From: Cetorhinus maximus
Lineage: Eukaryota
DNA length: 64,000 bases
NCBI RefSeq assembly: GCF_964194155.1
Contig: NC_135891.1
Location: 98,270,001-98,334,000 of the forward strand
Direction of reading: 5' to 3'
The first letter of the stretch is position 1. Each line of letters starts with the position of its first letter. Made by a program: the position numbers and the translations under genes. This document shows, piece by piece, positions 7,553 to 44,083 of this stretch. The notes under the pieces were generated by a model. That model was given only the letters and a program-made list of their open reading frames with translations, was not told the DNA's origin and ran no database searches.

Positions 7553-7826
7553 CTGCTTCGTGCCTGACCATGGGCTCCTGGCTGAGATCCTGCAGCACCC
7601 GGGTCAGGGCGGGGATAGCGCGCGGGTCCTGCATCTGGCCCAGGCAATAGGCCAGTTCGTGCTTCAGCAGCGCCGACTCGTCCCCGAAGCCCCTGGAGAT
7701 CCACTCGATGGCGAGCGGCCCGCCCAGGTTCCGGAGGGTGAACAGCGCCCGAAACCGCTCCTTCAGCGGCCTCGACACGTCCACCAGCGTCCGCCCTACC
7801 GACTCCACCGCCATCGCGTCCACCAT
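7553..7826 (-). CDS. DOHH: DOHH first coding exon (ATG at 7826)
   Basis: 274 nt: MVDAMAVESVGRTLVD...RFRALFTLRNLGG...SALLKHELAYCLGQM...EPMVRHEA, with two iron-binding HE motifs; donor CAG|gtgagg. Confidence 0.97.
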
Positions 7827-14304: not shown

Positions 14305-17300
14305 ATAAAAGCAAAAAACTGCAGATGCTGGAAATCCAAAACAAAAACAAAAATACCTGGAAAAACTCAGCAGGTCTGACAGCATCTGTTGAGAGGAGCT
14401 CAGTTAACGTTTCGAATCTGCATGACTCTTCAACAGAACTAAGGAAAAATAGAAAAGGGGTGAAATATAAGCTGGTTTAAGGTGGGGTGGGACAAGAACA
14501 GTTGGATAGAGGGTCAGTGATAGGTGGAGATAACCAAAAGATGTCACAGACAAAAGGAAAAAGAGGTGTTGAAGGTGATGATATTATCTAAAGGAATGTG
14601 CTAATTAAAGGTAGAAAGCAGGACAAGCAAGGGACAGATAGCTCTAGTGGGGGTGGGGTGGGGTGAAGGAATCGAAAAAGGCTAAAAGGTAGAGATAAAA
14701 CAATGGATGGAAATACATTTAAAAATAATGGAAATAGGTGGGAAAAGAAAAATCTATATAAATTATTGGAAAAAACAAAAAGGAGGGGGAAAATCGGAAA
14801 AGGGGTGGGGATGGAGGAGAGAGTTCATGATCTAAAATTGTTGAACTCAATATTCAGTCCGGAAGGCTGTAAAGTGCCTAGTCGGAAGATGAGGTGCTGT
14901 TCCTCCAGTTTGCGAGTTTGCGTTGAGCTTCACTGGAACATTGCAGCAGGCCAAGGATAGACATGTGGGCATGAGAGCAGGGTGGAGTGTTGAAATGACA
15001 AGCGACAGGGAGGTCTGGGTAATGCTTGCGGACAGACCGAAGGTCTTCTGCAAAGCGATCGCCCAGTCTGCGTTTGGTCCCTCCAATGTAGAAGAAACCG
15101 CATTGGGTGCAACGAATGCAGTAGACTAAGTTGCGGGAAGTGCAAGTGAAATGCTGCTTCACTTGAAATGAGTGTTTGGGCCCTTGGACGGTGAGGAGAG
15201 GGGAAGTAAAGGGGCAGGTGTTGCATCTTCTGCGGTTGCATGGGAAGGTGCCGTGGGAGGGGGTTGAGGTGTAGGGGGAGATGAAGGAGTGGACCAGGGA
15301 GGGAATGATCCCTATGGAATTCCGCCGGGGGAGGGGGGATGAAGGGAAGATGTGTTTGGTGGTGGCATCATGCTGGAGTTGGTGGAAATGGCGGAGGATG
15401 ATCCTTTGAATGCGGAGGCTGGTGGGGTGATAAGTGAAGACAAGGAGGACCCTATCATGTTTCTGGGAAGGAGGAGAAGGCGTGAGGGCGGATGCGCGGG
15501 AGATGGGCTGGACACGGTTAAGGGCCCTGTCAACCACCGTGGGTGGAAAACCTCGGTTAAGGAAGAAGGAGGACATGTCAGAGGAACTGTTCTTGAAAGT
15601 GGCATCATCAGAACAGATGCGACAGAGGCGGAGGAACTGAGAGAATGGGATGGAGTCCTTACAGGAAGCGGGGTGTGAGGAGCTGTAGTCGAGGTAGCTG
15701 TGGGAGTCGGTAGGCTTGTAATGGATATTGGTGGACAGTCTATCACCAGAAATTGAGACAGAGAGGTCAAGGAAGGGAAGGGAAGTGTCAGAGATGGACC
15801 ATGTGAAAATGATGGAGGGGTGAAAATTGGAAGCAAAATTAATAAATTTTTCCAGGTCCAGACGAGAGCATGAAGCAGCACCGAAGTAATCATTGATGTA
15901 CCGCAGAAAGAGTTGTGGGAGGGGGCCGGAGTAGGACTGGAACAAGGAATGTTCCACATACCCCATAAAGAGACAGGCATAGCTGGGGCCCATGCGGGTA
16001 CCCATAGCCACACCTTTTATTTGGAGAAAGTGAGAGGAGTTTAAGGAGAAATTGTTCAGTGTGAGAACAGGTTCAGCCAGATGGAGGAGAGTAGTGGTGG
16101 ATGGGGATTGTTCGGGCCTCTGTTCGAGGAAGAAGCGGAGAGCCATCAGACCATCCCGGTGGGGGATGGAGGTGTAGAGGGATTGGACGTCCATGGTGAA
16201 GAGGAGGCGGTTGGGGCCAGAGAACTGGAAACATGATAGGGTCCCCCTTGTCCTCACTTATCACCCCACCAGCCTCCGTATTCAAAGGATCATCCTCCGC
16301 CATTTCTGCCAACTTCAGCATGATGCTGGACCAAACACATCTTCCCTTCACCCCCCCGGCAGCATTCCATAGGGATCATTCCCTCCGTGACACCCTGGTC
16401 CACTCCTCCATCACCCCCTACACCTCAACCCCCTCCCATGGCACTTTCCCATGCAACCGCAGAAGATGCAACACCTGCCCCTTCACTTCCCCTCTCCTCA
16501 CTGTCCAAGGGCCCAAACTCTCATTTCAAGTGAAGCAGCATTTCACTTGCACTTCCCTCAACTTAGTCTACTGCATTCGTTGCTCCCAATGCGGTTTCCT
16601 CTACATTGGAGAGACCAAACCGCTTTGCAGAACACCTTCGGTCTGTCCGCAAGCATTACCCAGACCTCCCAGTCGCTTGCCATTTCAACACTCCACCCTG
16701 CTCTCATGCCCACATGTCTATCCTTGGCTTGCTGCATTGTTCCAGTGAAGCTCAACGCTAACTGGAGGAACAGCACCTCATCTTCCGACTAGGCACTTTA
16801 CAGCCTTCTGGACTGAATATTGAGTTCAACAATTTTAGATCATGAACTCTCTCCTCCATTCCCACCCCTTTCCGATTTTCCCCCTCCTTTTTGTTTTTCC
16901 CAATAATTTATATAGATTTTTCTTTTCCCACCTATTTCCATTATTTTTAAATGTATTTCCATCCATTGTTTTATCTCTACCTGTTAGCCTTTTTCGATTC
17001 CTTCACCCCACCCCACCCCCACTAGGGCTATCTGTACCTTGCTCGTCCTGCTTGCTACCCTTAATTAGCACATTCCTTTAGATAATATCATCACCTTCAA
17101 CACCTCTTTTTCCTTTTGTCTGTGACATCTTTTGGTTATCTCCACCTATCACTGGCCCTCTATCCAACTGTTCTTTCCCACCCTCCCTTAAACCAGCTTA
17201 TATTTCACCCCTTTTCTATTTTTCCTTAGTTCTGTTGAAGAGTCACGCGGACTCGAAACGTTAACTGTGCTCCTCTCAACAGATGCTGCCAGACCTGCTG

Positions 17301-17328: not shown

Positions 17329-20230
17329 TACCTGAGAGACCAAGTTCTCCAAGGGGTGGTTCATTGGAATGGGCTCAAATTCAGTTGCAAATAAAAAAAT
17401 TGGAACTAGAGGCAGAAGATAAAGAAAAGGAAAGATAAAGGATATTCCAAAGGGAACAGGAGAAAGGGCAGAGAAATAAAAAAAAATGTAAAGAGATGGG
17501 GCATTCCAAAGGGAACAGGCAGAAAGGGCAGAGAAAGAAAAAGGAAAGAGAGAGAGCATTTCAAAGGGAGTTAAAAATGGCCAAGTTAGAAAAGGAAGAA
17601 AGAAAAAAAGAGAGAGAATTCCAGCTTAAAATGCTGGCAATTAAAAAAGACACACCAGTAGGTGAGGCAGGACTTATTTCCAGATTGGAACCCAGTAGGG
17701 AGATGTTTAAATTTGTACAAGCTCTTCCAAGGTTTGAGGAAAGAGATGTTAAAGAATTCTTTATTTCATTTGAGAAGATAGCTAAACAGATGAACTGGCC
17801 AAAGGAAAACTGGACATTGCCCATGCAGAGCAAATTTACATGTAGAGCGCAGGAAATTTACGCTTCACTGACAGAGGAGGTTTCTAGGGATTATGATGTG
17901 GTGAAAAGGCCATTTTGAGTACATATGAGTTGGTCTCTGAAGCGTACAAACGAAAGTTTTGAAATTTAAGGAAACAGCCTGGGCAAACTTACATTGAATT
18001 TGAAAGGATTAAATGAAGTAGTTTTGACAGGTGAATACAAGGAAGAATTTAAGAACTCCCTACCTCCTGTAATAAGAACCCATGTTGAAGACCAAAGGGT
18101 TGCAACTGCTAGACAGGCAGCAATAATGGCTGACAATTATCAGCTGAAAAACTGAACATTTTTTCCATCACCTCCATAAATTTGAAAAAGATAGAAAGTG
18201 GGTGAGTGAAAGTAAGGCAAGTAGCCAGGGTAAACTGGATAGCTGGGAATACCTTGAGATCTCCTCCCCAGATCAGGGAGGAAGCTACTGAGGGTGGAGG
18301 TGAAACTCGATGGCCTAAATATTTCCATTGTAATAAAGTGGGACACATTTGTTCAGCTAAACCCAAAACTATATTAAGGGACACAGGAGCTACTCAAACT
18401 CTTTTGCTGGAGAAGGACCTAATTTTCCCTCCAGAGAGTTCAATGAAAGCTAAAGTATTGGTAAACGGGACAAGTGGAGAGTATATCCCGGTTCCATTGT
18501 ACAAAGTGCAATCGGAGTGTGATTTGTTGTCTGGATCAGTGGTGTGGGAGTGACTAAGGAATTACCCGTGGATGGAGTTGATTTCCTTCTGTGGAACGAT
18601 TTGGCAGGAGTGAAGGTTATAGCTTCGTCCATAATTACAGAAAGTCCGAGAGAGGCTAAAGAGATGGAACAGTTACAAGAACAAGTTCCTGGTATTTTTC
18701 CATCATGTGGAGCGACCAGAGCAATGGCTAAACAAAGTCCATAACCTGAGGTCAAAGTAATACAATGAGCAGATGTTAGAGTAGCCGAAACTTTCTTGAA
18801 GGATGAGGATCCGGCAAAGGAAGCGTTTGGCATGTCTTCATTGATTGAGGCTCAGAAAGTAGATCCAGAGTTAAACAAGTTAGCACAGTCAGCTCACACT
18901 GAAGCTGAGGCTGAAGAAGTTCCAGAGTACTATTACCTTGAAAACGGAGTTCTGATGAGGAAGTGAAGACACCCTCACAGACCTGCAGATGAGGAATGGA
19001 TGGTTGTTCATCAGATAGTGGTACTGCCCAAATATCGTACAGAGATATTGCGAGTAGCACATGAAGTCCCAATGGCAGGACATGTAGGAATATGGAAAAC
19101 CCAAGCATCGATAAACAGGTATTTTACTTGGCCAAGACTTCATAAGGTTGTAGTGCAACTTTGTAAAACGTGTCATACATGTTAGGTAGTAGGTAAACCT
19201 CAACATGTAATCAAACCTGCACCTTTAATACCCATACCTGTTTTTGAAGAACCATTCAGTCGAGTATTAGTAGTCTGTGTAGGACCATTACCCAAACTGA
19301 AAGCAGGACATCAGTATATCCTTACAGTCATGGATATGACAAATCGATTTCCAGAAACTATTCTTTTAAGGACAATTACAGCTAAGGTGGTGGCGGAAAA
19401 GTTAACTCAGTTTTTCACTCGTTATGGCTACCAATTGAAATACAGTCTGACCAAGATTCTAACTTCATGTCTAAAATTTTCCAGGACATAATCAGCAGTT
19501 TGGGTATCAAACAAATAAAGCCGATTGCCTATCACCCACAGACACAGGGAGCTTTAGAGAGATACCATCAGACTCTCAAAACCATGATTAAGACCTATTG
19601 CCATGAATACCCTAAGGATTGGGACAAAGGATTCGATTTCTTACTATTTGCTACCAGAGATTCTCCAAATGAATCAACTGGATTTAGTCCATTCGAATTG
19701 ACCTATGGTCATGAAATAAGAGGACTGTTAAAAGTGACTAAGGAAAAGCTCCTAAAGCAGAAAGACGAATCCTCCATTTGGATTACATGTCCATGTTTCT
19801 AGAAAGACTCATAGGATCATGTAAAGTAGCACGAGAGCATTTAAAAATTTCCCAAGCAAAAATGAAAGAATGGGCAGACAAACATGCTACAACTACAACG
19901 TTCCAAGCAGGAGATGAAGTATTGATATTATTACCTTTGCAGGGTGAACCCCTGAAAGTGAAATTCGGTGGCCCCTACAAGGTAGTTAGGAGAGTTAATA
20001 AAGTAACTTATCTGATAGATACCCCTGAACATAGGAAGAAGAAACGGTTATGTCACGTAAACATGTTGAAGCAATATCATCACAGAGAAGATGATGGGAA
20101 AGAGCAAGTATGCCAGCTGGTCGGAGTAATGGAGGATGACAGAGACAGTAAGAGTAAGGTAGAGGGAGAAGTAGAGAGTGCACAAAGCAAACCTCCGACA
20201 GTTAGACATTGTGTTCTCACATTTAAAGGA

Positions 20231-20862
20231 AGGATGGGGGAGGGAGTTCAAGATCTAAAGTTGTTGAATTCAATATTTAGCCCGGAAGGCTGTAAAGTGC
20301 CTAGTCGGAATATGAGGTGCTGTTCCTCCAGTTTGCGTCCCTAACCCCCCATCCCCACCCCCTTTTCCGTTTCTTCCCCCTCCCTTTTGTTTTTTCTAAT
20401 AATTTATATAGATTTTTCTTTCCCACCTATTTCCATTATTTTTAAAGCTGTCATGCCCTGTCAGTCTTTCCACCCCACCCCCACTAGAGCTGTACCTTGA
20501 GTGTCCTGCCATCCATTCTTAATTAGCACATTCTCTTAGATAATATCACCATCTTCAACACGTCTTTGTTCCTTTTGTCTGTGACATCTTTTGATTATCT
20601 GCTCCTATCACTGCTTGCTTGTCCCTACAACCACCCCCCCTGCACCCCCCAACTTCTCTTCCCCCACCGCCCCCCCCCCCCCCCACCTTAAACCAGCTTA
20701 TATTTCACCCCTCTCCTAACTTTACTCAGTTCTGCGGAAGGGTCATGAGGACTCGAAACGTCAACTCTTTTCTTCTCCGCCGATGCTGCCAGACCTGCTG
20801 AGTTTTTCCAGGTAATTCTATTTTTGTTTTGGATTTCCAGCATCTGCAGTAGTTTTTTGCTC
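20231..20862. mobile_element. Truncated Penelope-like insertion (short minus arm 20231-20338 plus a plus-strand 3' end) between Gypsy IN and RT
   Basis: Near-identical to 54735-54802 and 56330-56810; no clear TSD, and the Gypsy RT N-terminus appears deleted here. Confidence 0.85.
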
Positions 20863-22157
20863 TTAAGCAGCTTTAGTACTGGTTCCTAAGTTGGATGGAA
20901 CAACTAGATTTTGTATAGACTACTGGAAAGTGAATGCAGGAACGAGGACAGATTCGTACCCAGTTCCTTGATTAGAAGATTGCATCAATAGGGTTGGCAG
21001 TGCCTCATTTCTTTCTAAAATTGATCTATTGAAGGGGCACTGGAAATGCCATTAACATCAAGGGCTAAAGAAATATCTGCCTTGGTTACACCAAGTGGAT
21101 GGTATCAATGTCGAGTCATGCCATTTGGGTTTAAAAATGCTGAGCTACATTCCATAGACTTATGAATCAAGTTGTAGCTGAAGTACATAACTGTGCAATT
21201 TATCTAGATGATGTTATAATATGTAGTAATACATAGGAAGAACATGTAAAGAAATTAAAATTAAGGGACCTGTTTAAACAATTGCAGTTGGCTGGCTTAG
21301 TTATAAATCTGGCCAAAAGCGAATTTGCAAAAGCAAGAGTAAATTACCTGGGTCACATTGTAGAACAAGGGCAAGTAATGCCAAGAACAGCAAAAGTGAA
21401 CACTCTAATAGAATTTCTCATTCCTAAAACTAAACGAGAAATTGAGGTTTTTGGGAATGTGTGGGTTTTTATAGGAAACTTGTGCCTAACTTCAGCACAA
21501 TAGCTGTACCTCTCACCAATTTGTTAAGAAAACAGACAAAAGTGGTATGGTCAGCAGAATGCCAAGCAGCCTTTGAAAATCTGAAGGCAATCTTAATAAA
21601 TGAACCAGTGTTGGCTGCTCCTGACAATCCTTTTAAAATGGCTATTGATGCTAGTGACTTGGGGGTAGGTGCAGTCGTATTACAAGTTGATAAATTAGGG
21701 ATAGAGAAACCAGTGGGGTGCTATCCCAAGCAACTAAATCAATATCAGAGGAAGTACCCTACTGTAGAAAAATAAACTCTAGCATTGTTGTCTCTTCAAC
21801 GTTTTGAAGTTTACGTCTGACACAATAAAAAAGAAACACTAATTTACACTGACCATAATCCACTGGCGTTCATTGAACAGCTTAAAACTCGAAATGTGAG
21901 ACTGTTTAGATGGAGTCTATTGTTTCAACCATTCAATGTAAAGATTGTTCACATTGCCGGCAAAGATAATGTGATTGTGGATGCATTGTCCCAGGTGTAA
22001 ATTATTAAAATAAGTTAAAGGGGTAAGAGATGTTGAAGATTGTATAAGGGGGAGGATGAATGGAATTAAGTCTCGTGCTTTGTTGTCCATATGTCACATA
22101 CCTTGTGATAAAATGCATTTTTGAAATGGTGTTTCATCTCTTTTAAAGGTGGAGACA

Positions 22158-24418: not shown

Positions 24419-25534
24419 CTAGCTTTCCTTTAGACCCATAAAGTAAGTAGACAATACTTGACGAATTTCTTCAGCTTGCCTATCAACTGTTCTATCTGAC
24501 ATTGTTTGATTTGGCTGAGGGAATTCATCCTGCCCAAGAACACGCAGCCAGTCATTATTAAAACCATCGTTATGTTTTTCGCAGATATTGTGAAGAATGC
24601 AACAGGCAGTGATCATTGTTGGAATCAGTTCAAGGCTACAGTCATTCCGCTTAAGAAGACATTGCCAACGTGCTTTGAGTCGTCCAAATGCATCATCTAT
24701 CACAGTGTGAGCTTGGCTTAACCTGCAGTTAAACACAAGTTGATGCTGTGATAGTTTTGCTGTTTCTGAATATGGCTTCAGGAGCCATTCCTGTAGTGGA
24801 TATGAAGAGCTGCCTATCAGTAGGTATTTCACTGGTGTTCTCAGAATATTTTTTGAGCAGTCAGGGAACAACCTTCCTTCAGTAGCCATTCTCCATAGAT
24901 CAGAATTCCTTAGAATTTTTGTATCAAGAGAACTCCCAGAAAATCCAGTACAGACGTCCCAGAAATTCCCAGTATCATCAACTACACCTTGTAATACAAC
25001 TGAATGCCATCCCTTTCTGTTTAGGTAATCTTTGTGATATTGTGGAGGGGCAATGATGGGTATGTGGCAACTATCAATGGCACCAACACATTGGGGAAAA
25101 TCCCACTTTCGAGCGAACATTTGAGCTATCATTTCAAATTCTTGATTAGAAGGCATCCTAAGATACAGCGGCTTTAAGAGAGACACAATGGCATGACATA
25201 CTTCCCTTACACATTTACAAACAGTTGATCTGCCTATGCCAAACAAATGGCTAATAGTTCTATATTCGACGTTAGTAGCAAGTCGCCAAAATGCCACTGC
25301 AACTCTTTTTTCCAGGGGCAGCGCGGGACGAAGGTGAGTATTGCGACGAGAAACCATGGGCTTCAGCTTATTACAGATATGGAAAAATGTTTCCTTAGAC
25401 ATTCTGAAATTTTCCAGCCAATCATTTGGCTGAAAGTCCTTCATAACCACACGTTCCCACCAGTCCGAACTTCTTGGCTTACACCAGATTCTTGTACGAC
25501 AGTTACACCTACTACCTCCACGTGCCATCACCAT
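24419..25534 (-). CDS. Harbinger transposase-derived gene (HARBI1/ALP1-like, DDE_Tnp_4-type fold), exon 2
   Basis: Uninterrupted 371 codons plus stop after the acceptor tgtttgcag|ATG. Motifs WLENFRMSKETF, an HTH (YRTISHLFGIGRSTV), FPQCVGAIDSCHIPI, YLNRKGWHS, AFGRLKARW and ACCILHNICE; AATAAA on the minus strand at 24282-24287. Confidence 0.93.
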   Translation of the reverse strand: MVMARGGSRCNCRTRIWCKPRSSDWWERVVMKDFQPNDWLENFRMSKETFFHICNKLKPMVSRRNTHLRPALPLEKRVAVAFWRLATNVEYRTISHLFGIGRSTVCKCVREVCHAIVSLLKPLYLRMPSNQEFEMIAQMFARKWDFPQCVGAIDSCHIPIIAPPQYHKDYLNRKGWHSVVLQGVVDDTGNFWDVCTGFSGSSLDTKILRNSDLWRMATEGRLFPDCSKNILRTPVKYLLIGSSSYPLQEWLLKPYSETAKLSQHQLVFNCRLSQAHTVIDDAFGRLKARWQCLLKRNDCSLELIPTMITACCILHNICEKHNDGFNNDWLRVLGQDEFPQPNQTMSDRTVDRQAEEIRQVLSTYFMGLKES

Positions 25535-27828
25535 CTGCAAACATCAAATAAAAATTTTGTTACAACTATACTCCTTAAACATCCAGCAATACTGCAAGAT
25601 TTAAGAGAGATCTGTATTTAAAAGTTAGTACAAAGGACATATGCTGTTACAGCTATTTCCTGCTAAGGCGTGCTGGGATCATAATGTGTATGAACATCAC
25701 ACAAGTATTCAAAAAGACACACTTCAGATGTGGTAACACAATCATAGTCAAGATTTCCTTTTGGATGAAAATCTTATTAACAAGATGTCTGAAAATAAAT
25801 AACTTTCTCTTTAAATCATTGGAAATGGAGTTTTTAATCATTATGCCCGGGAGGACAAGCTAATTTATAACAATTTTAAGTGCATCAGAAAATGTAATAG
25901 AGCTGTATAATTCGGAGTGTGTTCATAGAAGGCATTTGCCCACATTTTGAAGATTTCTTTTGAAAGGTTGAATAATATAAAGAATCATGGAATGAAAAAA
26001 GGCTATTTGGGCCTATCAACAAGATTTTATGCTTTTAGGAACCATTGCAGAATTTCACGATGGATATAACTTTTAAAAAGGTTTTTAGCCAGCTTGCAAT
26101 TTAATGCAATGGAATTTGTTTTTCTCAAACTCAACCAAGCATTAACGCGAACTCCATTCAATTCATTTCCACCCAGAAATTTAAAATGAACAGAATTAAA
26201 CTTTGGTGTGAATGTTCATTTCCTACAGGCACAGACTCCATCCCAAAAGTAAATAGAGGTTTCAATCAAAACACTATTATGGTTAGAAGGAAAAATAAAT
26301 TGGATTGGCATACAAACTGGTTTAATAAGGCCTTTGCAATTTTGCTTAGGGTTTAAAGTTTTGCAATTTCTTAATGCATAATTAGTTTTTAACTTTTAAA
26401 CATGATCATAAACAGAATGATTGCCAATTCAGTTGTCAAATTAAAGTTTCACCTTGATACATATTGATAATAGCTATATCTAATCACTTTTTTCTGGCTG
26501 TAGGGGTTGGAAAAATAAGTTACCCTTCAGCTCTTGTCTACAAATGTAGTCTGCTAAAATTCAGAAGCTTTGTATTCAGGGGAAGGGAAAATTATGTAAA
26601 GAAACCGATTTTTTTTCATTTCAGACACCCAGTGCCAGAACCTGGTACTTCCAGTTTACAGCCAACTGTAGCACTAAGTTCATTATATTCTGGCCTGACA
26701 GTAGTTTACAGGGAAACAAAAATAACTGAAATAAATCTAATTTAAGAAGAGCACCCCTCCTTCACCAATATTCATTTAACACAATCCTTAGAGTCAGCAT
26801 GTGGAAAATGAATCTAAATCTAATCCTATTTGGGAGTAGCTAATTGCTCTGTGCACTTACTCTCCCAGCACAGTCCATCCAGTTTCTGAATAACCTTAAA
26901 ACAAGAAATATCACATTTGCAGGGCAGAGCAGATCATTTGCGAAAGAAGGTTCGAACTTCGCTATACAGGAGATCCTTTGGTCCTTTACACCAATTCTGG
27001 CTTTCTGAAAGAGGCGTGTACCTAGTCCCATTCCACTATCTTTTATTTAGGTCTTATCAAATATTTATCTACTTCATATTCATAAGCTACTGTGGTGTCT
27101 GCCTCCATTACTTATTGATGAGCCGATCCAACGTTCCAACAACCCTCTGTTTAAAAAAATTCCCAAGCTGATTAGAATCAACCAGCCCATCTCAATTTCA
27201 GTCATTATGGTGAAGGATTTCAAAAATAGGTCTCCATGTGCTTCATGTCTGGCGCTATTTAAATTGTATCAAATAATCTGATTTGACACCTCGCTCCCTT
27301 CCTGAAGTAACGGGATCCAAAAAGGCCGCCAAAGGCACTCACTTTGCAGCATTTATTCTGAGTCTGACTGGGGTTACAAACTGCTCTCTGTCCTGGTGAA
27401 GAGTCATAACGGACTCGAACCGTTAACTGTCCCCACTTCCCCCCCTCTCTCCCCCCCCCCCCCCCCTCTCCGCAGTCGCTGTCAGACTTGCTGAGATTTT
27501 CCAGCTATTTTTGTTTTTGTTACAAACTCCTGCTGGGTTTCAGCTAATGGATGAGCAACAATAGTGAGCGTGAAGAGGCGGCAGCGATTTGCCTGGTCCT
27601 GCCGTCCATGTGAACCCCGCTGACAGGAGCCGGGGTTCAAGGCGCGGGCGCCAGTCAAAGTTGTGCCCTTTGTGTGGCTGCACACACCCGGGTTTTGGCG
27701 TTTGTTCCCCTAACTCACCCCCACCCCCCCATACCCTCTCTCTCCCCCCCACCCCCCGCATACCCTCCTCCACCCCCTCTCTCCCCCATACACCCCCAAT
27801 ACCCGCTTACACCCCCTCTCCCCCTCAC

Positions 27829-27990
27829 CAATATCATTTTCCGCTGCCGTTGCTGGAAATACTGCCTCAATCTCAGCCTCCTCTGCGTATCGTTCCTCCT
27901 CTCGACGCTCGCACTTTCATACTCGGAGCGGCGCTTCATTAACAGAAATAGGAATAAAAACATCATTGGCAGCACCGTCTCCTGCGCCAT
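27829..27990 (-). CDS. Harbinger-derived gene, coding exon 1 (54 aa)
   Basis: Kozak aacATGG at 27990; MAQETVLPMMFLFLFLLMKRR...RQYFQQRQRKMIL; donor TTG|gtgagg in phase 0, matching the phase-0 acceptor at 25534; lies in a CpG island. Confidence 0.8.
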
Positions 27991-28530
27991 GTTGACTGAC
28001 CTGGGAAGTGCTCGACTCCCCCTCCCCCTCCCCCTCCCCAGGGGCCCGGGCCTGGGGCCTAGGCCCGGAATGTCCCCCATCGGCAGTTGGAACCGGATTC
28101 CACCTCTAAAGCCCGGCTCCCTCTTTAGAGTTATTGAAGGGGAGAAATAGAAATGACCGCGGGATTAGTATGTTGGGAAGCCTGTTCCACTTTATAACTA
28201 TAGGGTTTATTGTGATGGCGTAACCATGGTGACTCGACAGCACCTCCCCCCCCTATCCAGGGCCACCCGCGTCGCCATGGCAACGGCGCACTTCCGGTGG
28301 AGGTTTGAATTCGAGTGACGTCACAATGGTAACGGTCGCCGGAAGTGCGGCCGCCATGTTGTTGGGGGGCGGGGGGGGTTTGGTTGGATGAGCTGTTCAA
28401 GTCGGAGCGGAGGGCAAAGCGGGTGGAGAACGTTTCAATGAGAATCTCTGACACGGGCAGCATGTGAGGGCCAGTCCGCCAGCCCTTCGGTCGAGATTCC
28501 TCAGCAGACAGTCCGACGCTGCAGGTACGG
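27990..28530. promoter_or_regulatory. Bidirectional CpG-island promoter (Harbinger-derived gene and FZR1)
   Basis: CpG-rich. Palindromic CRE GTGACGTCAC 28315-28324; inverted ETS sites ACTTCCGG 28290-28297 and CCGGAAGT 28339-28346; YY1-like GCCGCCATGTT 28350-28360; RFX X-box-like GTCGCCATGGCAAC 28271-28284. Confidence 0.85.
28360..28524 (+). other. FZR1: Probable FZR1 non-coding exon 1 (5' boundary uncertain)
   Basis: Donor CAG|gtacgg at 28524/28525 at the edge of the CpG island; the next exon (from 32446) has an acceptor and 5' UTR before the ATG. Confidence 0.6.
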
Positions 28531-28619: not shown

Positions 28620-28830
28620 ACCAACCTGACCCTAACACCAACCCTGACCCAAACACCAACCCTGATCCTAACCCTAACCCTGATCCTAACCCTAACACCA
28701 ACCCTGATCCTAACCCTAACACCAACCCTGATCCTAACCCTAACCCTGATCCTAACCCTAACACCAACCCTAACCCTAACACCAACCCTAACCATAACCT
28801 GATCCTAACCCTGACCCTAACACCAACCCT
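28620..28830 (+). repeat. Degenerate telomere-like hexamer array (CCCTAA/CCCTGA/TCCTAA/CACCAA)
   Basis: About 35 hexamers with a recurring 24-bp unit ccctgatcctaaccctaacaccaa. Confidence 0.92.
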
Positions 28831-31800
28831 GGGCTGGGATAAGTTTCTTCAAGGTCTGGGTTTGGACTATCCAGATGCTGTTGTCTCCCGTCCTTTCTTT
28901 TTTAAATCGTTTGTAGCTGGATTTGGGATTGCTCTTGGTTTTATTTTAATGAGCAGGAATGTGGCTTCACTGCAGATATCAAGGTGCATTTTCTGTGCTG
29001 CTGTGGCAAATGTTTCTCAAAAGACATCTCGATTCCCTTTGAACACATCAGAAATAGCTTCCATTTATTCATGTGCTCATGACAGCCCAACCCCTTTCAC
29101 GACTATGGCAAAATAACTAATTTTGAAATGGTGTAACTGTTAGGAACATAGGGAACAGTCAATTTGCGCACACAAACTTCCTACGAACAGTATTGAGATC
29201 ACTGACCGGTTAATGTTACCCGTGGTATTGGTTTAGATAATCGTTGGCTAGGACTCTTAAGGGTGTGTATTCGTTCTTCTATTAGTGCCCTTAGATTTTT
29301 TTTAATGTCCACCTGAAGAGGCAGGTGAGGTCTTTTTAAATAATGAAAAACAAGGCTGCAGATGTTGGTAATCTGAAAAAGAAAACGCTGGAAACACTCA
29401 GCTGATCAGGCAGCATCTGGAGAGAACTGATGAACTGAATGAAGTCAACACATTTAATGCCTGTCTTCATCTAATAGACAAGATTCTGTACCAAAAGGAA
29501 ACTTATGTTTATATAGTTTCTTTAATGTAATAAAATGTCCCAAGGTGCTTCACAAGAACATTTTAAAACAAAGTATGACACCAAGCCACTAAAGTCAGAT
29601 GACCAAAAGCTTGATCAAAGAGAGAGGTTTCAAGGAGTGTCTTAAAGGAAGAAAGTGTAGTGCTCCTGCTACAAGTGACTGCCACAAACACCAGCCCTTT
29701 TCAATTGCAAACATAGGAATTGCTAGACATAAAAGGACCAAGGTTTATCTACTATGTATTCTACCATCTTTGCAGTTGCATGGTGCCATGATAATGGAGC
29801 TGATTAATCCTAGCAATCAGCCTCTTGATTAGTCTACCGCAGACACGATGTGAGGGAAACCTCAGTGAATTGGGAGCCATAGGTTAAAGTCACATTCCTT
29901 TTAAGCAAACTGCACTGACCACATGTCATATCTCAAATTATTCACGCATTGCACCCCAAAATGTTATTTACTGAAAGAAATCTATCTAATTTACATTTTA
30001 ATAAGTTAATAGGAATGTCTTCCACTATATCACTTGTCAGCCTGTTCCACTGAAATATTGTTTTTGTGGTTTAATGAGTTTTGATTTTATTCCCTTTCAA
30101 ATGTAGACCATATTCTACTGTCCTGACAAGGTGAAATGGATTGTCATGGTCTGCATTATCTGGCAAGCATACCACATACCCAGCTCTTCGCAGCGTGAAC
30201 ATGCCTAATTCCAGCCCCTTCTTCATTCTGAATGTTATCTCCTATCTTTTCAATAACACTGAAGTGCTATGTAATCAGTCAGTCAGTTCAGGATGGAAAT
30301 ATTTTCCTGGAGTTTAAAACTGCATACATATGCTGTATTAGCTTATTGTTACCTTTCAATTGTTCCCAATTGGATGTTTTCTCTGTGTCAGTTTAATGCA
30401 TCCCAGTTGTCAGTGCCAACAACCATGTTGCCAAGTGCAAATTGTTATCTGTGTGCAATTTCTAGAAATTGCAAGCTACTTCATTTATCTCAAAATATTT
30501 GTATTCAAGAGAATGGGTTTTGGTGCAGAGAAACTTTACTACTTTCTTATCTGAATAGATGGGATTACTATTGTAATACTGATTGACAAATGCGACAAAC
30601 TTGCTGTCCATTTGAATTAGTAAAATACATAGTGTGAGAAGAACAATTCAATGTTTTATATATTGCTTTGTGTGTAATTAAATTTTTAAGAACACTTGTT
30701 AAAAGGGGTGAAGTGATGTGTTTTGGGGGTCTTTTGAAGGTAGAGAGCAAGGCATAGTATTTTTCAAAGATATTCAAACAGTGGCATAAAAGCTGAGGCA
30801 TTGGTCTTCTATAGTAGACTTGGGCAAGCAATAATTGGGAGAGAGGACTGGAGGGCGTAGGTTTCGATTTGTGGGAGAGACAGTTGCACAAATAGAGTAT
30901 AATGAGGTGGGTTAGGAATTTGAAAACTTGATTGTTTATTGTTGAATGTGGAATGAGTCATGGCCAGGATGGACCTGTGGAGTTTTGGATTTATAATATT
31001 TACCATCACATCACGAGTTTGTACTGATTTGTTAATTGTACAAACTTCCAATATTTAGGATCCAATTAGTCGCAATGTCTTTGGGATTTACCAACGTTTT
31101 TCACAGCCACTGAGTTAATTTTTGTATGTGCTGTTACTTTTGATATCTAAGCTGATGCAACCACCAGTTTTAAACAAAGAAAGGCCCCAAAAATAGTGAT
31201 GAAATGTAAGGTGTTAATGGTGTTCGAAGGGTAGATGTTAGTCAGGATGCCAGGAGAACTCTGCTGCTCTGCACATGGTGCAATGGGATCTTTTACATGC
31301 ATCTGAACAGAAATTTAACATTTTGATCTCATCTAAATGATTAAACCTCCAACAATTCCTCAGTACTGTACAAGAATATTGTGGCTGGTTTGCTGTAGAG
31401 TACTGGCTGGAATGCAGCAGTCAGAGATTGTTCTAGCATTCAATCTTCAATGAAGTGCGAGTTTTGTCTTTTAGGCTTAGCAAGTGTATTAAGTGCTATT
31501 CTATTCAGATCAATTCAGGAACTTTGTGTAGTGAAGTGTGAAATTATGAATTATGCTTTTTTTTTTTGCTGCTAAATCCCTCATTCTGTGATCGTAATTG
31601 GTGGTGTCAGTAATGCCAAAAGAGTTCCTTTATTTTTTGCCCTATTCTGAAAAGTCAAACTTTAAGCTCTCGCCATTCTCTGACAAAGTGCTATAATCCC
31701 AATTTTAATAAATCATGTTTCCCTGATACCAACCTTTCCTGATATTGAGGAGACAATGAACACTTCAAAATTCTTTGTATTGCTTCTTGCATTTCCACTC

Positions 31801-32486
31801 TGAACATTTATGCATTTTCCTCTCTCTCTATGCCACTGTTGGAGTCAGAGCCTTGAGTAACTTTGATCATATGAAACATCTACTTTTTCCTTTTTTAAAA
31901 AAAACTTTTTCCAAGTCCACCTTTTCAACCTAATCTATCCTTTATGGCACAATGTTTGTTCCCCTATCAATTCCTAGTTTTACTCAATTCCCCTGGCCCT
32001 GTGCAGTGCCTTTGAATGCTTTCTACATTAAAGCTACAAATATAAGTGCAAGTTATTGGTCCTACATGATCAGCTTGATGCTGTTATAAGGTCTTACTTC
32101 CAAAAAAAGTGAAGACTTTTAAAACATGTGTTCTTTTACGGAAACATTTGCATTACAAGTTGGAACCTTGGACAGTGCCCTTCAGTTATGTTACTAGAAC
32201 CCCTTTCCACGCACACACTGATATCATTGAATCAGATAAACAGTCAAACTCATTCTGTATGATCAGTTCCAAAAGTGTCGTGTCTCAAAGTTCCGATTGA
32301 AAATATCCAAATAGTAATTTATTTGAATTCCAATTAGTGAATTGTTTTGTAATGTATATTTATCAAGGCTACTACCAGTGTAAAAGTTGCACAGTATATT
32401 AAGTATTTACACTTGGATTGTTGTTTCTTTCTTTCCTGGTTTCAGAACTAATTCCTGATTAGCCTCAAAGTTCAATTCGCCTAACT

Positions 32487-36636: not shown

Positions 36637-38602
36637 GTAAGTTATTGTTGAAAACATTCAATAATGTAGGCATTTTGGAGGGAAAATATCTGTACATTCA
36701 GAATTAATTTAGAATGACCTTAAATGCTTGCTTTTATGAGGGTCCATTTACTTCCATTGTTCCTTATTCAACATAGCCTACATAATGTTTGGGGAGCCAC
36801 ATGAAGTTAGTTAAATATTACTTGCCACTATTATTCTGCCACCAATACTCTGTAAAGTAACAAAGCATAATCCGTAACTTGCTACCCACTGATTTCTAAT
36901 ATGGATTCAAATAAAATTTCAGTTTTCTGTAGGTTATATTGGATTAAAAAAACTTTTAGCTAAGTAGCACTCTTACTGTTGTGCTTGAGCTTGCCTTTTG
37001 AATATAGGAATTCCAACTAAATTTGCTATGAATTGCCAAAGTTTGTAGATTATTTACCATCTTATTTCATTTCCCAGGCAGTGGACGAAATTTAATGGAG
37101 CCTGCAGGAGCGGGCATGATGGAGGGGAGCTGGGAGAATCCGGCAGGAGTACCTGTGTCTGATTTTCAGCATCGGGAAAATTGTCCTGAATTTAGTGGGG
37201 GATATAAGAGAAGTCAATTTAGCTCACTAATGAGCCTGTGCCTCCCGATGGTTGCACAGCAAACTCTATCAGGTTTAGCTGTGGCTCTGTAGTGGCTGGG
37301 TCCCACAGGCACTCAGTGACCGAGTGAGAAACCTGGCACCGGGCAGGACCTGCCCGTGCATCCAATGCCCCACACCTCCCGACCTTGATCTTCCCCCCTT
37401 CTGTTGCCGGCTCCACAAAACCTCCATCCCTCCCCACTCGCCTATCTCCAGGGATGCAGCGATGGTCCCTGGTAAAGGTCTCGGAGAATTACCAGCATGA
37501 GGCACTGCTACCAGTGGCGCTGCTGGCAATGGAGACTGCCGGCCTCTCATTGGCCAACAACTGTTGGGGGCAGGGTTTTGCCCTACTGGAGCCTTGACTG
37601 TGTGGGACACAGGGCTCCCACTGGTTCTTCAACCGTGCGAGCGACTCCTGTTGCACAAATTAAATTCCACCTGGTAAATGGATGTGAAAGGAGATGGGAT
37701 TCACTGCATGAAATGTACATTGACTGGAAGAAGGTACATTAAGTGTAGCATGATTCCCAGACATTTTCTCTCCTCTTCCTTTCCCATCACCCCTTCAAAT
37801 AGTTCCAGTTGTGTGGGGATCCATTCCATCAAATCTTCAGATATGTGGGAGGAGGAGAAAAGGCATTAGTGTTCATTAGGCAGTTCTCAATTTTTCTACC
37901 CTTGCCTTGGAAGAGCAATGTTCAGCCAATGCTTACAGCAGGTCTGCCAGTGAATGGCGGTCATTTGCTTCTCAAAGATTGACATCCTTCTCTTATTTGG
38001 AGCAGTCAGGAATTTAAAACTTCGGTCCTTGGTGGGAAAAAGTCCAGACGAGAAATAGACACAAAGTAGCAGTGGAAAGATTGGGGAAATGGACAAAAAC
38101 ATAGTTGAAAAGTGTAACAGAATAAAGGTCAGCCTATTTTAAGTGGTGTGTTCTTAATATGGAAATTTGCTTTTGCTTAGAAGTGTTTTTCTGCGATGGT
38201 CACATTATATTGAGCCTTAAACATTTATGACTAAGGTAAAAGGTTATGCGCAATATAGTTTGTGTGCACAATTGTCTGAAAAAGTAGGTGTCACAAATTG
38301 CAGATAGGCCTCCCAGCTCTTGGCCGGAATTTTGAGGTCGGTGGGCGGGTGCAGTGGGCAGGCCCAGCAGCAGACTGGAAATGACCCAATACCAGCGATC
38401 GGCCCCTCACCGTGATTTTATGCTGGCGGGCCAATTAAGGCCCGCCGAGCGTGAATAGTGGCTCCCCAATGGTTGGGAAGGGGTAGGTGAGGGCCTGCTG
38501 ACCGTGGGATCCAATGGTGGCTGGTTTAAAACCAGCACAGTCAGGCCCTGGAAGGCTGCTGGTGGCGAAGACATCTTTGATGTCAGCAGGAGAGCAAATA
38601 TT

Positions 38603-40440
38603 ATGGATACAAATGCAGCTGTAGACGCCAGGCGGGTGGGCACTTGGCACCCCCCTTTTCTGATGAGTGCCAGGCGGTCCTCCTGGAGGAGGTGGCTGCC
38701 AGGAGGGTCACCCTTGTCTCCAGGGATGGAAGGAGGAGGTCGCCGCACCTAACATAAGAGCTTGGGAGGAGGTGGCAGTGCTGGTCAGCAGCCATGATGT
38801 GGTGCAGCTTACCTGCATCCAGTGCCGCAAGAGATATAACGACTTGCTACTCTCAGGAAGGGTGAGTACCGTGTTGGCATGGATCATTGTGTTGAAGTGT
38901 TAAGGGCTGGCCGTCCCCCTGTGGAGCTCAGGGGTGTTAGAGTCTGAGTGCCAACTGTCAATGACGCCGGAGCTGGCCAAGGAGGTGAGCCTTGGCTGCT
39001 TGGACTGAGTGCCTTGTGGCCCAAGGGCCACGACTTGGATCTGCCCTGCAAGGTGCTGCTCAGGTGGGTTGGCCAGGCTGTAATGGTGCTGCAGGTCGCG
39101 TGGACTAGTCAAGGCTCCTCTGTCCTTTCAGGAGAAGACAGCCCATAACAGCATTGAAAGGCTGCAGACAGGCTGAGGCCCCCCAAACCTCCTCATCCTA
39201 ACCAGGCATGAATAGGATGCTCTTTGAGATGGAGAGCCGGCATGCACCTCGGTCAACCAGCCGTCCAGAGGCTGGGGTGTCAGACGAAGGTAAGAGTGCA
39301 GTGCACCGAGGTGAGAGTTTCGGATGGTGCAAACCTCCTTGTGTAGCCTCATCGTTGATGGGAGCCTCAACACTGCATTCCCCATTGACGATGGCACCTT
39401 GATGCAGATCTCCATGGTTTCACCAATGTGTCTAGCGTGCACAGTGACATTGTGGTGACTTAAACTAATGACATGTCCTTGTTCTCCCTTAGGTTTCCAC
39501 CACGCACCCAGTCTCAGGACCCTGAAGACCCACCCCTGATGCCAGAGGACCATTAGGCTCCAGATGCACCTGCATCACACCTGCTCTCTGAACCGGGCAC
39601 CAGTGCAGATGCCAGCACCTTGGTGGACGTTAGATCTTTGGCTAGAATGTTGGTGCACAGGAGTGAGGGCACTTCACACTCGCTTGAGGTGCAGGCGGAG
39701 GCAGAGTGTTCCCAGGGCACCTGCAGTCGGAGGATGGCTGGAGACCAGGACGATGCTCAGCCGAAGGCAGATGATGAGCCGCTAGAGTCGTCCATTAGGC
39801 AGCAGATACTGAATGTCCAGCAAGATGTGTGGGAGGATCTGGCAGAGATCCATGAGGGAATGCGTGCCATGGTTTCCATTATGGAGGAGCCCATGTGGAG
39901 CATGAGTACTGTGTTGACCATCATGGCTGAGCGCACTGCCTCCTCCATTGAGAGAGTGGCAACTCTCATGGAGAGGCAGCTCCAGGAACAGAATCGGATT
40001 CCTAGGGTTGCGCTCGGACCTGCGAGCCCTCTTACAGGCACTGAGCTCAGGTGGTCAGTGTCTGTGTGGAAGATGGATGAGGCACCCAGTATCCCAACCA
40101 AGTACCCGCCCATCAGTGGTGAGCAGGGAGGTCCAGAGTGACTTCACATTGGCGCACGAGCTGCCTGTTGTCTCTGCAGGCTCCTCTCAGAGCGCTCTGG
40201 ATGATGGCAGCAGCTCCTCTGCCCCTCTGACCGTGACATCTGATGAGGCTGCGGCGACTGGGGAGATGCCAGCCGTGGAACTGGCCGCTCCCTCCCAGGC
40301 GGGGCCAGCATAGGCTGCACTAGTCAGAGGACGACTGCGAAGGTCATCGAGGCCAATAAGACAGTCAGCAGGCTGTTTCCAATGCCGGTGCCAGCAAGGG
40401 GCAAGCACCAAGATGTAGCACTCACAAATGTAAGTTTAAG
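38603..40440 (+). pseudogene. Harbinger Myb/SANT-like DNA-binding gene remnant (probably 3 exons)
   Basis: RAWEEVAVLVSSHDVVQLTCIQCRKRYNDL then donor |gtgagt (~38861); next exon EKTAHNSIERLQTG*GPP (from ~39132); coiled-coil-like third exon; stops and frameshifts. Confidence 0.8.
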
Positions 40441-40779
40441 GCACCATGAGCACAAGAGGGACTGGTCCGGGTAATCTTCTGTTGTGCAGTGTTTTGTTTC
40501 TTTTAACTGATCTGGGGTTGAAGACCAAGAAGGTTCTGTTAATTTGTTTTGACTGTCAACATGAGATAAATTTTCTTTTGTTGTAATGGCCTGGGCATAC
40601 TTCACCTTTTTTTATTTAATGAGGTGCAGGGTATGCCAGTATGTAATGCTGGACCTGGACGGCTCAAAACTTTATTGCACAGGCATTGAGTACTTTGGGG
40701 TCAAAGGAAAGGGCCATTTCAGACATGTGGGATGGAGACGGCAGCCCTGGCATAAGGTGGTAGTGCTTGTTTGGCAGCC

Positions 40780-41991
40780 TAGCTGTTGGATTAAGGTGTC
40801 CCTGCCTCCCTGGAGGCTACATAGGTCTGCCTCCACGCCCTCAGCGTTCTCCTCACCGTGATAGTCTTCTGACTGACTACTGGAGCCATCATCTGTGGCC
40901 CGTGGAACTGCGTCAGCATCCTCTTCCTCCAGTGGGTCCCCCCTTTCCAGTGCCAGATTGTGGAGAGAGCAGCATGCAACCACTATCAGTTACACCCGCT
41001 CTTGGGGATATTGGAGTGCTCCCCCTGAACAGTCAAGGCATCAGAAGTGAGTCTTCAGAAGACCCGTGGCCCTCTTTATCATTGTCCTTGTGGAGGCATG
41101 GCTCCTGTTATACCGCTGCCCTGCCTCTGTTCTTGGGTGGCGGAGAAGCTTAATAAACCACCTTTTCAAGGGAGAGCTCCTGTCACCCAGCAGCCATCCA
41201 TCCAGTCGGGCTGGAGCACTGAAGTGCCTGGACACCTGGGAGTTCCTCAGGATGAAGTGTCACGGGAGCTGCCAGGGTACCTTGCACAGACTTGCAGAAT
41301 ATGCACTCTATGGTCTCTCACTATCTGCACGTTCATGGAGTGGAATCCCTTCCTGTTAACAAAGGCACCTGGCTGACCCCTGGTGCCTTGATGGCCACAT
41401 GTGTGCAGTAGATTGCACCCTGGACGCTGGGGAACCCAGCCATCGCTGCAAAGCCTCTGGCTCGCTCAGCCTGGTTGGCCTCGTCTGTAGGGAAATGAAT
41501 GAAAGTCAATGCTCACCTGAACAGAGCTTCTGTCAACGGCTTGACGCAACTGTGGACAGCTGATTGGGAGACTCCACGCAGATCCCCCACTGACCCCTGG
41601 AAAGAGCCAGAGGCATAGAAGTTGAGGGCCACTGTGACCTTCAGAGCCACTGGCATGGGGTGTCCACCCACACAGTCGGAGCTGATCTCAGGCCTGATCT
41701 CAGGCCCAATCATCTGACAGATGGAGGTCATCCTGTCCTGTGAGAGGTGGAGCCTCCTTCGGCATTGGACATATTGAGGTAGCTGCATCACCGCCTGTAA
41801 ACCCTGGCAGCAGGATAGTGGTGTCTTCTGCGGCCCCTTCCACCTTGGACTTCCTGCTGGCCCTGTGCCTGCGCCTCTCCTGCCACAGGTCGCTCCCCTG
41901 GAAGCTGCATAGGGACACCTGGCCTCCTCTCCCTTCTGCCCCTCTCTTCCTCCTTGGAGGAGGTGCCACCAGCAGAGACTACAATCCCCAT
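40780..41991 (-). pseudogene. Harbinger transposase remnant
   Basis: Fragments [64 protein letters not shown] and VACCSLHNLAL in shifting frames. Confidence 0.88.
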
Positions 41992-44083
41992 TACCAGGGT
42001 TAAAAGAAAGCTGTCTGCACCCTGGAAGGGTCCACACAGTCTGAATTCTCCGGGGTCTTTGGAAACACCAAGGAGTCATGAAATGAAGCCTGGAAATGCT
42101 AACAATGAAGCCCCAAACAGAGATGAAGCTGCCACATACCAATAAGTCACCAGCAGCAAACTATCTACCAACTCCTCACTACCCATACTGGCAATGCTGC
42201 TGACCTTTTTTAACCCGCCTGTGGATGAGGTTTTTGAAATTGTCGGCTGGCCGTCTGCCCATTTTGCCCATGCAACAACCATGAAATCACACAGTCAATG
42301 AAAAATCGGCATCAGTTGACTTTTTAATTGCCTTAACTGGCCTTTTAAATAATGACGGGCGCGGTTCCGGCACCCCGTGCGCATGCCGAGGGAAATATCG
42401 AGCCAGTGCGTGATGACATCGGGATGCTCACCTGACGTCATGATGTGCTGTTTTACGCTTGAACGTGTCAGCTGCGCACCCGCACACTGAGCGAAAAATT
42501 CTGCCCCTTGTGTTACTGAGAAGAGGATATTGGCCTACATTTTCTCAAAAGCGGCGTTGTTCCAGAAGCCATTCATTCTTAGTGGAATTGTTGCCACAAT
42601 TGCTTTTTGCTCTTTGTTTTACTGAGACTTTTTAAATAATGCAGTAGATCATCTAAGGTGTTACAAATAGTAAGGACAGAAGTCTTGTACACTATATAAT
42701 GTACAATATATTGTTCTGTTCCTTTAAGGCTGCAAAATATAATTACTGTTAAAGAAATTGTCCTTGGCTTAATCAGAGTTTAATTTTTGTGCAGTGTGAA
42801 AAATGTTTAAGTTTTGGGTATTAAGTGACTGGCTTTTTCCATAAGACAGTCTTGTATTTGTAGCAAAATGTGATTGCCTCTCGTGTTTATCTTTTCAATG
42901 TTTATATATTAATATAGTCGTTTAATAAAATAGTCACCTGATGAGACAGCATGTTAGCAGTTACTAAGTTGTAAATGTCTCATATCGTTAATAGCTCAAA
43001 GATTGTTACAAGTAGATCCTGCCCTATTAGGATTCAAAATGATGCCAAGCCTGCGTTCTGTATATTTAACATTCTGTAAACCTACACACTTGCAAAGATA
43101 TTTTTGTTGTACCAAGCAGCACTCCTCCAATTCTGGCCTCTTGAGCATCCCCAGCTTTAATCACTTCTTCATTGGTGGCCCTGCCTTCAGCTGCCAAGAC
43201 CCTAAGCTTTGGAATTCCCTCCATAAACTTCTCTTCCTCTCTTTTCTTCTTTAGGACACTACTTAAAACCTACTTTATGACTAAGCTATCAGCCCTAATA
43301 TCTCTATGTAGTCTAGTGTCAAATTTTTGTTTGGTAACTCTTCTGTAAAGTATTTGGGCTATTTTGTTGTGTTAAAGTTGCTATGTAAATGTAAACCATG
43401 TTGCTATAAGATCTAGGAGATTTTGGATTATTTCCTGAATTGTGTTTTTTTATCTTTGGGAAGTGCTGCATGTCTCAGCCCTTCAGTTTGAAAAATATTC
43501 TGAGCCTGAAGCTGAAACTTCTAGATTTCTACAGAGCCACTATACAACTTGGGTATTAGCAAAATAAACTGTGTGCCATCTATTAACCCATCTAACAAAA
43601 AATGTGACTTGCATCTTATTGCAGTGATCTCATTCTTTTAATTAAATTACCAGATTTTTTTTCTATTTCTGTTGAAATAAATGGTTGTCATGGTCTTAAC
43701 TGATTAACCAAATTTCGTTTTTTTAAAGAGCAATAAGCCTATCTTTTCTAGTTTTTTATGAGCAGACAAACTGTTGCTCGCTAATCACAAGATATATGAT
43801 TTGACAGCAGTAAAACTATATTGTTCACTCTGATCCACAAACCAATAAGATCCATTGAACAGTGTTGAGGTGTACATCCGACTAAGTTAAGGTCACCAGA
43901 CCAACAGCCAAGAAAACAAAAATTATTGGTCTGTAGCAGAGAAAGCACAATGATCTGCAAGTATCACCATTCATAAATAGACCTGTTGACCATTTTTAAG
44001 ATGGTGCTGCATAAATGGCCTACGTAAATTGAGCATTGAGTACATATACTGAACATATATTTTGATTTTTGTGTCTGTTCTAG

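Follow-up and report, generated by a model that had tools for sequence, protein, structure and literature searches.

A single-copy host gene derived from a Harbinger transposase, linked to DOHH and probably dating from the ancestor of jawed vertebrates

A stretch of 64,000 nucleotides (nt) of the basking shark (Cetorhinus maximus) genome (contig NC_135891.1, positions 98,270,001 to 98,334,000; hereafter the window, whose numbering is used below) contains, between DOHH and FZR1, a two-exon gene encoding a transposase-like protein. An earlier sequence-only reading of these letters had proposed an intact host gene at this place, domesticated independently of HARBI1. We find a single-copy, spliced host gene and are highly confident that it is a domesticated PIF/Harbinger transposase. 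The best reading of the data is that it represents a second vertebrate domestication of a Harbinger transposase, independent of HARBI1, which likely occurred in the ancestor of jawed vertebrates. Beyond what had been proposed, the analysis reveals a decayed catalytic triad, two copies in teleosts and an apparent loss in lepidosaurs.

The coding sequence, made of exons 27990-27829 and 25534-24419 on the minus strand, translates into 425 amino acids (aa) followed by a stop, with zero internal stops. The elements of the gene are as follows.

27829..27990, minus strand: coding exon 1, 162 nt, 54 codons; predicted long N-terminal helix (residues 6-58), kept in orthologues
25535..27828, minus strand: intron, 2,294 nt, phase 0, GT-AG
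24419..25534, minus strand: coding exon 2, 1,116 nt, 371 aa plus stop; helical/helix-turn-helix domain, RNase H-like core, C-terminal helices
24279..24418, minus strand: 3' untranslated region (UTR); AATAAA at 24287-24282, 130 nt past the stop; the longest contig stops at 24279
26861..27433, minus strand: minor alternative first exon joined to exon 2 in one low-depth X4 contig; open reading frame (ORF) 27031-26861 adds 57 aa

The initiating ATG, with A at -3 and G at +4, is surrounded by a CpG island (27501-28500; GC 0.56-0.60, observed/expected CpG 0.70-0.72). Four small contig sets, presumed to be RNA (X1, X4, X12 and X17), were mapped on the locus. The junction between 25534 and 27829 (2,294 nt skipped, CT..AC on the plus strand), which had been put forward as a check, is exact in two of the four, X1 and X4, which come from two studies of two organisms other than the basking shark; contigs from X12 and X17 cover parts of exon 2 and the 3' UTR only, short of the junction. 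Translation, the AATAAA signal and the contigs thus confirm the structure originally described: two exons, an intact 425-codon frame, a Kozak-type ATG in a CpG island, a phase-0 intron of about 2.3 kb and a polyA signal. A short dispersed repeat lies inside the intron near 27465-27525. A public shark record (P0272, XP_078411992) carries an identical exon 2 protein, opens with the peptide of the alternative first exon listed above and is named "uncharacterized".

Pfam assigns the protein, through its exon 2 part, to DDE_Tnp_4 (PF13359; E 6e-30, 104 bits against a cut-off of 24.8), with additional matches to Plant_tran and HTH_Tnp_4. The predicted structure (64 relatives in the alignment; mean predicted local distance difference test score 85.8) shows a single long helix at residues 6-58, then the helical domain and the RNase H-like core. 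Its best matches among solved folds are DDE transposases, namely piggyBac (Z 9.4, root-mean-square deviation 5.0, 237 residues aligned) and Tn5 (Z 8.5); the fold-search matches included no solved Harbinger transposase. Judged from these matches, the protein belongs by origin to the PIF/Harbinger transposase superfamily.

None of the hallmarks of an active transposon (terminal repeats with a 3-bp duplication, a Myb ORF, dispersed near-identical copies, an intact DDE triad) is found at the gene. A DNA search of the 3.99-Gb genome, made to count copies, returned two matches, the locus itself and one 270-bp fragment. The other 108 scored genome protein matches are 27-33% identical to the gene's protein; the 18 that were fetched keep the transposase motifs and represent a distant mobile family. 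The 270-bp fragment (L002:1507-1776; G000:C1:94,786,123-94,786,392) is an internal piece of exon 2, 96% identical and containing a stop, and sits about 360 bp from a Harbinger transposon copy. As the sequence-only reading had noted, neither terminal inverted repeats nor a Myb/SANT ORF accompany the gene: no Harbinger-type repeats surround it among the 25 longest of 102 repeat pairs, and no Myb_DNA-bind_4 (PF13837) match falls at the locus among 150 scored genome candidates, other Myb families not having been searched genome-wide. A true Harbinger transposon does occur in the window.

38322..42506: decayed full-length Harbinger transposon inside an intron of FZR1; terminal inverted repeats of 31 nt, target duplication CTT

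This element, whose transposase is frameshifted (minus strand) and whose second ORF is broken (plus strand), is a member of an abundant resident Harbinger family. Pfam recognized neither of two short fragments of the second ORF, whose Myb label rests on likeness to other copies.

Among the coding differences to related sharks that were listed (the table holds 21 further rows), 5 are non-synonymous and 14 synonymous, on approximately 1,004 and 271 sites, respectively. The corresponding dN/dS ratio (omega), another of the checks proposed, is about 0.10 (p 1.5e-6), and the gene is under purifying selection. Full-length relatives, exon 1 peptide included, are 91-96% identical in sharks, 85% in the chimaera (over 425 aa), 65% in the coelacanth, 61-62% in sturgeon and gar, 54% in zebrafish, 51-53% in turtle, gharial and bird, 51% in a caecilian and 47% in the axolotl. 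The clade as a whole comprises chimaera, sharks, rays, coelacanth, ray-finned fish, amphibians, turtles, crocodilians and birds. In a careful tree of 36 chosen rows, all 15 chosen orthologues group in one clade with 100/100 support, extending from chimaera to birds, which upholds the suggestion that the gene is old in jawed vertebrates; cartilaginous fish are sister to bony vertebrates, and the topology matches the species tree except for the coelacanth, placed weakly with ray-finned fish (85/54). In a quick tree of 65 rows some teleosts have two copies, a pattern that fits the teleost genome duplication. Outside the clade, the closest kin are transposon-like proteins, from fish or unnamed, and a hagfish gene. 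The hagfish protein was considered as an orthologue and rejected (forcing it into the clade gave an approximately unbiased test p-AU of 0.014). Hagfish P0081/P0306 and sturgeon and bowfin P0099/P0452/P0319, all outside the clade, have eroded catalytic motifs; these proteins may be further independent domestications of the same Harbinger sub-lineage.

In nine species (Callorhinchus, Cetorhinus, Chiloscyllium punctatum, Scyliorhinus torazame, Latimeria, Gavialis, Alligator, Eretmochelys and Natator), the accession or index numbers of the gene and of DOHH directly follow one another; outside the basking shark, we infer adjacency from accession order. Records of the gene and of DOHH are of equal length in several further species, parrot among them. 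As read from the tree and from record order, the gene has descended vertically in linkage with DOHH. In a tinamou model (P0141) it is fused with DOHH and one more small gene, and one database clusters the DOHH proteins of birds with it (P0025 cluster) despite zero similarity; both could reflect either annotation fusion or real read-through splicing.

Inspection of the alignment at the catalytic positions identified the following residues.

25073..25075, minus strand: D208, first catalytic Asp, kept
24809..24811, minus strand: S296 where the second catalytic Asp would be; all 12 cartilaginous fish rows have S
24695..24697, minus strand: D334, replacing the catalytic Glu; D in 11 and H in 1 of 12 cartilaginous fish rows

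The basking shark triad therefore reads D-S-D. We assigned 126 clade rows to lineages, excluding fragments and fused models (rows are clusters and do not count independent events). The DDE triad is broken in 96 of these and whole in 30, versus 27 whole among 29 rows of the transposon-like outgroup. It is lost in all cartilaginous fish rows (12/12), all otocephalan and euteleost a-copy rows (69/69), both caecilians and both frogs, and the residues lost differ among sharks, teleosts, caecilians and frogs. The HD motif is present in none of the 126 clade rows versus 26 of 29 in the outgroup, and the RK pair, kept in 25 of 29 outgroup rows, is gone in 123. Conservation in clade and outgroup, respectively, is 0.41 and 0.21 for the N-terminal helix, 0.65 and 0.51 for the helical domain, and 0.56 and 0.56 for the RNase H core. 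On these scores conservation has moved, relative to the outgroup, from the RNase H core toward the N-terminal helix and the helical domain. The alignment thus points to repeated decay of the cutting site, with the N-terminal helix and the helical domain remaining constrained relative to transposons. A single DDE change lowers Ping excision about 150-fold (PMC2836001); judging from the residues replaced, cutting activity has very probably been lost in sharks.

Searches of a protein database with the shark and the bird protein found zero named mammals or lepidosaurs among the best 120 of 508 and the best 120 of 171 matches, respectively. Both lists extend down to sea-urchin and other transposases at about 41-50%; a control search with DOHH listed 8 named mammals and 16 named lepidosaurs. 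A profile search over 1.84 billion representatives (best 150 of 32,345 matches) yielded 145 new ones, of which 10 belong to the clade (7 group with teleosts and 3, all frogs, with amphibians) and none to the amniote branch. Gene loss in frogs, suggested by the word-based searches, was overturned by this result. The profile library covers annotated genes, and members within 50% of a bird representative are hidden in it. Because frogs had escaped the word-based searches, near-bird members are hidden and unannotated genes lie outside the library, we grade loss in mammals and lepidosaurs as likely, within protein databases only. The loss in mammals postulated by the sequence-only reading holds to that extent, and appears to be shared by lepidosaurs.

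Harbinger nucleases contact their Myb partner through the nuclease N-terminus and the Myb C-terminus, and the interaction has persisted in each domesticated pair examined, that is, Harbi1/Naif1, HDP1/HDP2 and ALP1/ALP2 (PMC7282668). In the basking shark genome, Myb_DNA-bind_4 has five strong loci among 21 matches. Two of them (L025 and L026) resemble MSANTD1 and MSANTD2, respectively. The other three are intron-split Myb_DNA-bind_4 genes, whose distant C-terminal exons have a common Harbinger-like helix motif.

C9:95.27-95.28 Mb: intron-split Myb gene L022/L043
C19:68.26-68.28 Mb: intron-split Myb gene L023/L055
C9:87.29-87.31 Mb: intron-split Myb gene L024/L049

From their sequence, the L022, L023 and L024 genes are probably additional domesticated Myb genes of Harbinger origin, and they are candidates for the partner. 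Complex prediction for orthologue P0001 with the C-terminal helix of L043, one of five candidates, gave a score of 0.17 (without alignments or controls).

We envisage that a transposase inserted beside the FZR1 promoter and captured it. The change of two of the three catalytic residues in sharks would have abolished cutting and makes a non-catalytic scaffold likely there. By analogy with plant ALP1, the N-terminal half would bind a Myb/SANT protein, and this partner would import the protein and target it into a nuclear chromatin complex. Taken as a whole, this scheme of a domesticated gene, non-catalytic in sharks and serving as a Myb/SANT-bound chromatin scaffold, is one towards which we lean slightly. 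A bolder version, modelled on ALP1/ALP2 and in our opinion possible but doubtful, is that the gene and one of the L022/L023/L024 Myb/SANT genes form an undescribed module found from sharks to birds and lost in mammals; the gene would then replace HARBI1 as the oldest vertebrate Harbinger-transposase gene, and cartilaginous-fish records named HARBI1 would be misnamed.

The relationship to HARBI1 requires separate consideration. Human HARBI1 is located at 11p11.2 with AMBRA1 and ATG13 (PMC12945570); its range is given as cartilaginous fish to mammals (PMC9392472, section 6) and elsewhere as teleosts to mammals (PMC9710019). In the basking shark, one CpG island on C9 lies between AMBRA1-like and ATG13-like exons, and the gene itself is on C13. 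The two kinds of exon are named from motifs and from their position, not far from an exon of the midkine/pleiotrophin family. No Harbinger ORF was found between them with two profiles (C9:76.49-76.62 Mb, no N; L114-L126, L143), and the same two did detect the gene and decayed Harbinger copies near the interval. The 790 kb beyond the midkine/pleiotrophin-family exon contained decayed transposon pieces only. Genome searches for the HARBI1 region with profiles PF10033 and PF09396 gave no matches, and of two HARBI1 motifs one hit a transposon fragment and the other nothing. The chimaera record "putative nuclease HARBI1" is the DOHH-linked gene, and the text supplement of PMC9392472 carries no accession for a shark HARBI1. 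HARBI1 may be missing from the basking shark, have moved or have arisen after cartilaginous fish, and cartilaginous-fish records bearing this name may be the DOHH-linked gene. The lack of a Harbinger ORF in the AMBRA1-ATG13 interval, along with the "putative nuclease HARBI1" label on several database members, is what one might expect if our gene were HARBI1's true orthologue, sitting at a different locus, or had arisen from HARBI1 by an ancient duplication. We nevertheless consider this very improbable. HARBI1 is a mammalian gene, and with a true orthologue mammals should appear in the clade; no named mammal did, either in the two sets of best matches or among the new representatives, so that the gene does not behave as HARBI1. 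Moreover, its nearest outside kin are the transposon-like and hagfish proteins. The five refuting conditions set by the sequence-only reading all came out in favour of independent domestication: a single copy, DOHH-linked orthologues, a dN/dS near 0.1, spliced contigs and no grouping with a mammalian protein.

Other explanations concern what the protein does. It could still be a metal-dependent nuclease or DNA-processing enzyme wherever the triad is whole, with a structural role only in sharks, most teleosts, caecilians and frogs. Every bird, turtle, crocodilian, coelacanth and sturgeon/gar/bowfin row has an intact DDE, and the triad of plant ALP1 was kept in basal land-plant groups and lost in angiosperms (PMC4671723). 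Against this, the HD motif and the RK pair have disappeared in nearly the whole clade (their catalytic role is deduced from conservation), and the basking shark protein remains strongly conserved in spite of lacking two triad residues; we regard this explanation as unlikely. Less probable still is a gene by which the host represses Harbinger transposition: as a dead transposase it would have soaked up the Myb protein of the element or poisoned its transpososome, and it would have been dropped once Harbingers died out. The many Harbinger copies of the basking shark would fit such a role, but the resident mobile family shares no more than 27-33% identity with it and is remote in the tree, and the gene evolves slowly, unlike one engaged in an arms race. 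Furthermore, birds retain it, although they are not known to have active Harbingers. The absence of Harbinger transposons from mammals (PMC9392472, PMC9179366), where the gene was not found, also suits a repressor; however, lizards have Harbingers (PMC3014272) and yet no orthologue was found there, and ALP and Ping proteins do not cross-bind (PMC7282668). Finally, the transposase Pfam domains, and the horizontal transfer of Harbingers reported in fish (PMC9179366), would be compatible with a transposon acquired recently or horizontally and intact in appearance only. The single copy, the broken triad and the lack of terminal repeats among the listed pairs speak against it, and the same neighbour from chimaera to turtles and crocodilians, together with the species-tree topology, contradicts it; we give it a negligible chance.

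Several observations weigh against our interpretation of a domesticated gene of independent origin and scaffold function. The tree took in no HARBI1 sequence; of the phylogenetic check proposed earlier, what stands is a clade apart from Harbinger transposases and devoid of mammalian proteins. The synteny check likewise held in part: linkage to DOHH extends to nine species, adjacency to FZR1 is seen in the basking shark genome only, and in three of three species listing both, the teleost a-copy and DOHH are on different records. If three unlisted X1 differences were all non-synonymous, the X1 omega would rise to 0.21 (hand calculation). Frog orthologues surfaced only in the profile search, hence a diverged or unannotated mammal or lizard copy can escape word-based searches too. 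The triad is whole in all 17 amniote rows (11/11 bird, 3/3 turtle, 3/3 crocodilian), in the one coelacanth row and in 3 of 3 sturgeon/gar/bowfin rows; in turtles, crocodilians, birds and basal bony fish, catalysis or metal binding may therefore be of importance. Lastly, no Myb gene adjoins this one, unlike several insect co-domestications (PMC9710019).

The surroundings of the gene include the following features.

28371..28524, plus strand: exon 1 of FZR1, non-coding, joined to exon 2 at 32446 (ATG 32487); contigs X4, X12
7554..7826, minus strand: first coding exon of DOHH, which lies downstream of the gene in the same orientation and has a CpG island of its own (about 7.5-8 kb)
27991..28370: CpG-island promoter, likely bidirectional and common to the gene and FZR1 (contigs, island)

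The FZR1 exon 1-exon 2 join is held by the same two contig sets, and PF24807 matches a later FZR1 exon. The first exons of the gene and of FZR1 lie head to head, about 400 nt apart, so the promoter is likely common to both. Consensus matches within it are X-box-like (28271), ETS-like (28290 and 28339), CRE-like (28316) and YY1-like (28350) motifs. Bird models P0020, P0023, P0026 and P0029 are over-extended, and the peptides translated upstream fit the ETS-, X-box- and CRE-like motifs of the shark promoter (28271-28357), a hint that the promoter may be conserved. Nesting of the gene in DOHH intron 1 was rejected for the basking shark because DOHH carries its own CpG island at the first coding exon. 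On chicken chromosome 28, one study groups FZR1, DOHH and unnamed LOC genes (PMC12649552). Elsewhere in the window, a degenerate TTAGGG-like repeat array occupies 28620-28850 at the start of FZR1 intron 1, broken ORF pieces of a Gypsy-like long terminal repeat retroelement lie between DOHH and the gene (17,400-22,000), and long reverse-transcriptase-like ORFs of a repeated retroelement are found at 14,881-16,257 (459 aa) and 54,623-56,266 (548 aa).

Like HARBI1, whose partner is NAIF1, the gene is a Harbinger-transposase host gene of the DDE_Tnp_4 family, old in vertebrates and of unknown function (PMC9392472). It differs in lying at DOHH-FZR1 and not at AMBRA1-ATG13, in having no mammalian member found and in a triad broken in most lineages; its nearest kin are zgc:113227-type and unnamed transposon-like proteins. 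The zgc:113227-type fish proteins, hagfish P0081/P0306 and sturgeon/bowfin P0099/P0452 belong to the same Harbinger sub-lineage at 43-48% identity and all stand outside the clade, the first of these keeping the transposase motifs. With plant ALP1, HDP1 and HHP1, which are parts of chromatin complexes via a Myb/SANT partner (PMC4671723, PMC7282668, PMC8616336), the gene shares domestication and a broken triad, and with ALP1 also a single 5'-proximal intron and a triad lost in particular lineages. Its origin is independent of theirs, and its own partner and complex are proposals by analogy. The insect genes DPLG, APLG, LPLG and BPLG were, as here, recognized as independent PIF transposase domestications by synteny, purifying selection and lost element hallmarks (PMC9710019). 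The present gene is far older and has no co-domesticated Myb/MADF gene beside it, hence it resembles the transposase-only insect cases.

Altogether, this is a real, undescribed gene of a known kind, a domesticated Harbinger transposase. We found no description of it in the open literature; subscription journals, Repbase reports and most supplements were outside the search, and an earlier mention is possible. HARBI1 is the sole vertebrate transposase-derived Harbinger gene named in the available parts of PMC9392472, PMC8616336, PMC5753468 and PMC9179366. The main screen for such genes began from human proteins (PMC9392472, section 6) and was therefore blind to genes lost in mammals. Members are labelled "HARBI1", "ALP1-like" or uncharacterized in databases, as had been anticipated, and atlas searches returned generic names only. 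Two plant "ALP1-like" proteins fall far outside the clade, so this label is only a similarity name. Such names conceal distinct genes and may affect the dating of HARBI1. The gene would be the second independent vertebrate case, as old as jawed vertebrates and 85% identical between shark and chimaera; since zebrafish and birds have it, a knockout is feasible. Its catalytic residues have been lost repeatedly, as in plant ALP1, which makes it testable whether animal domesticated Harbinger transposases act as Myb-partnered chromatin adaptors.

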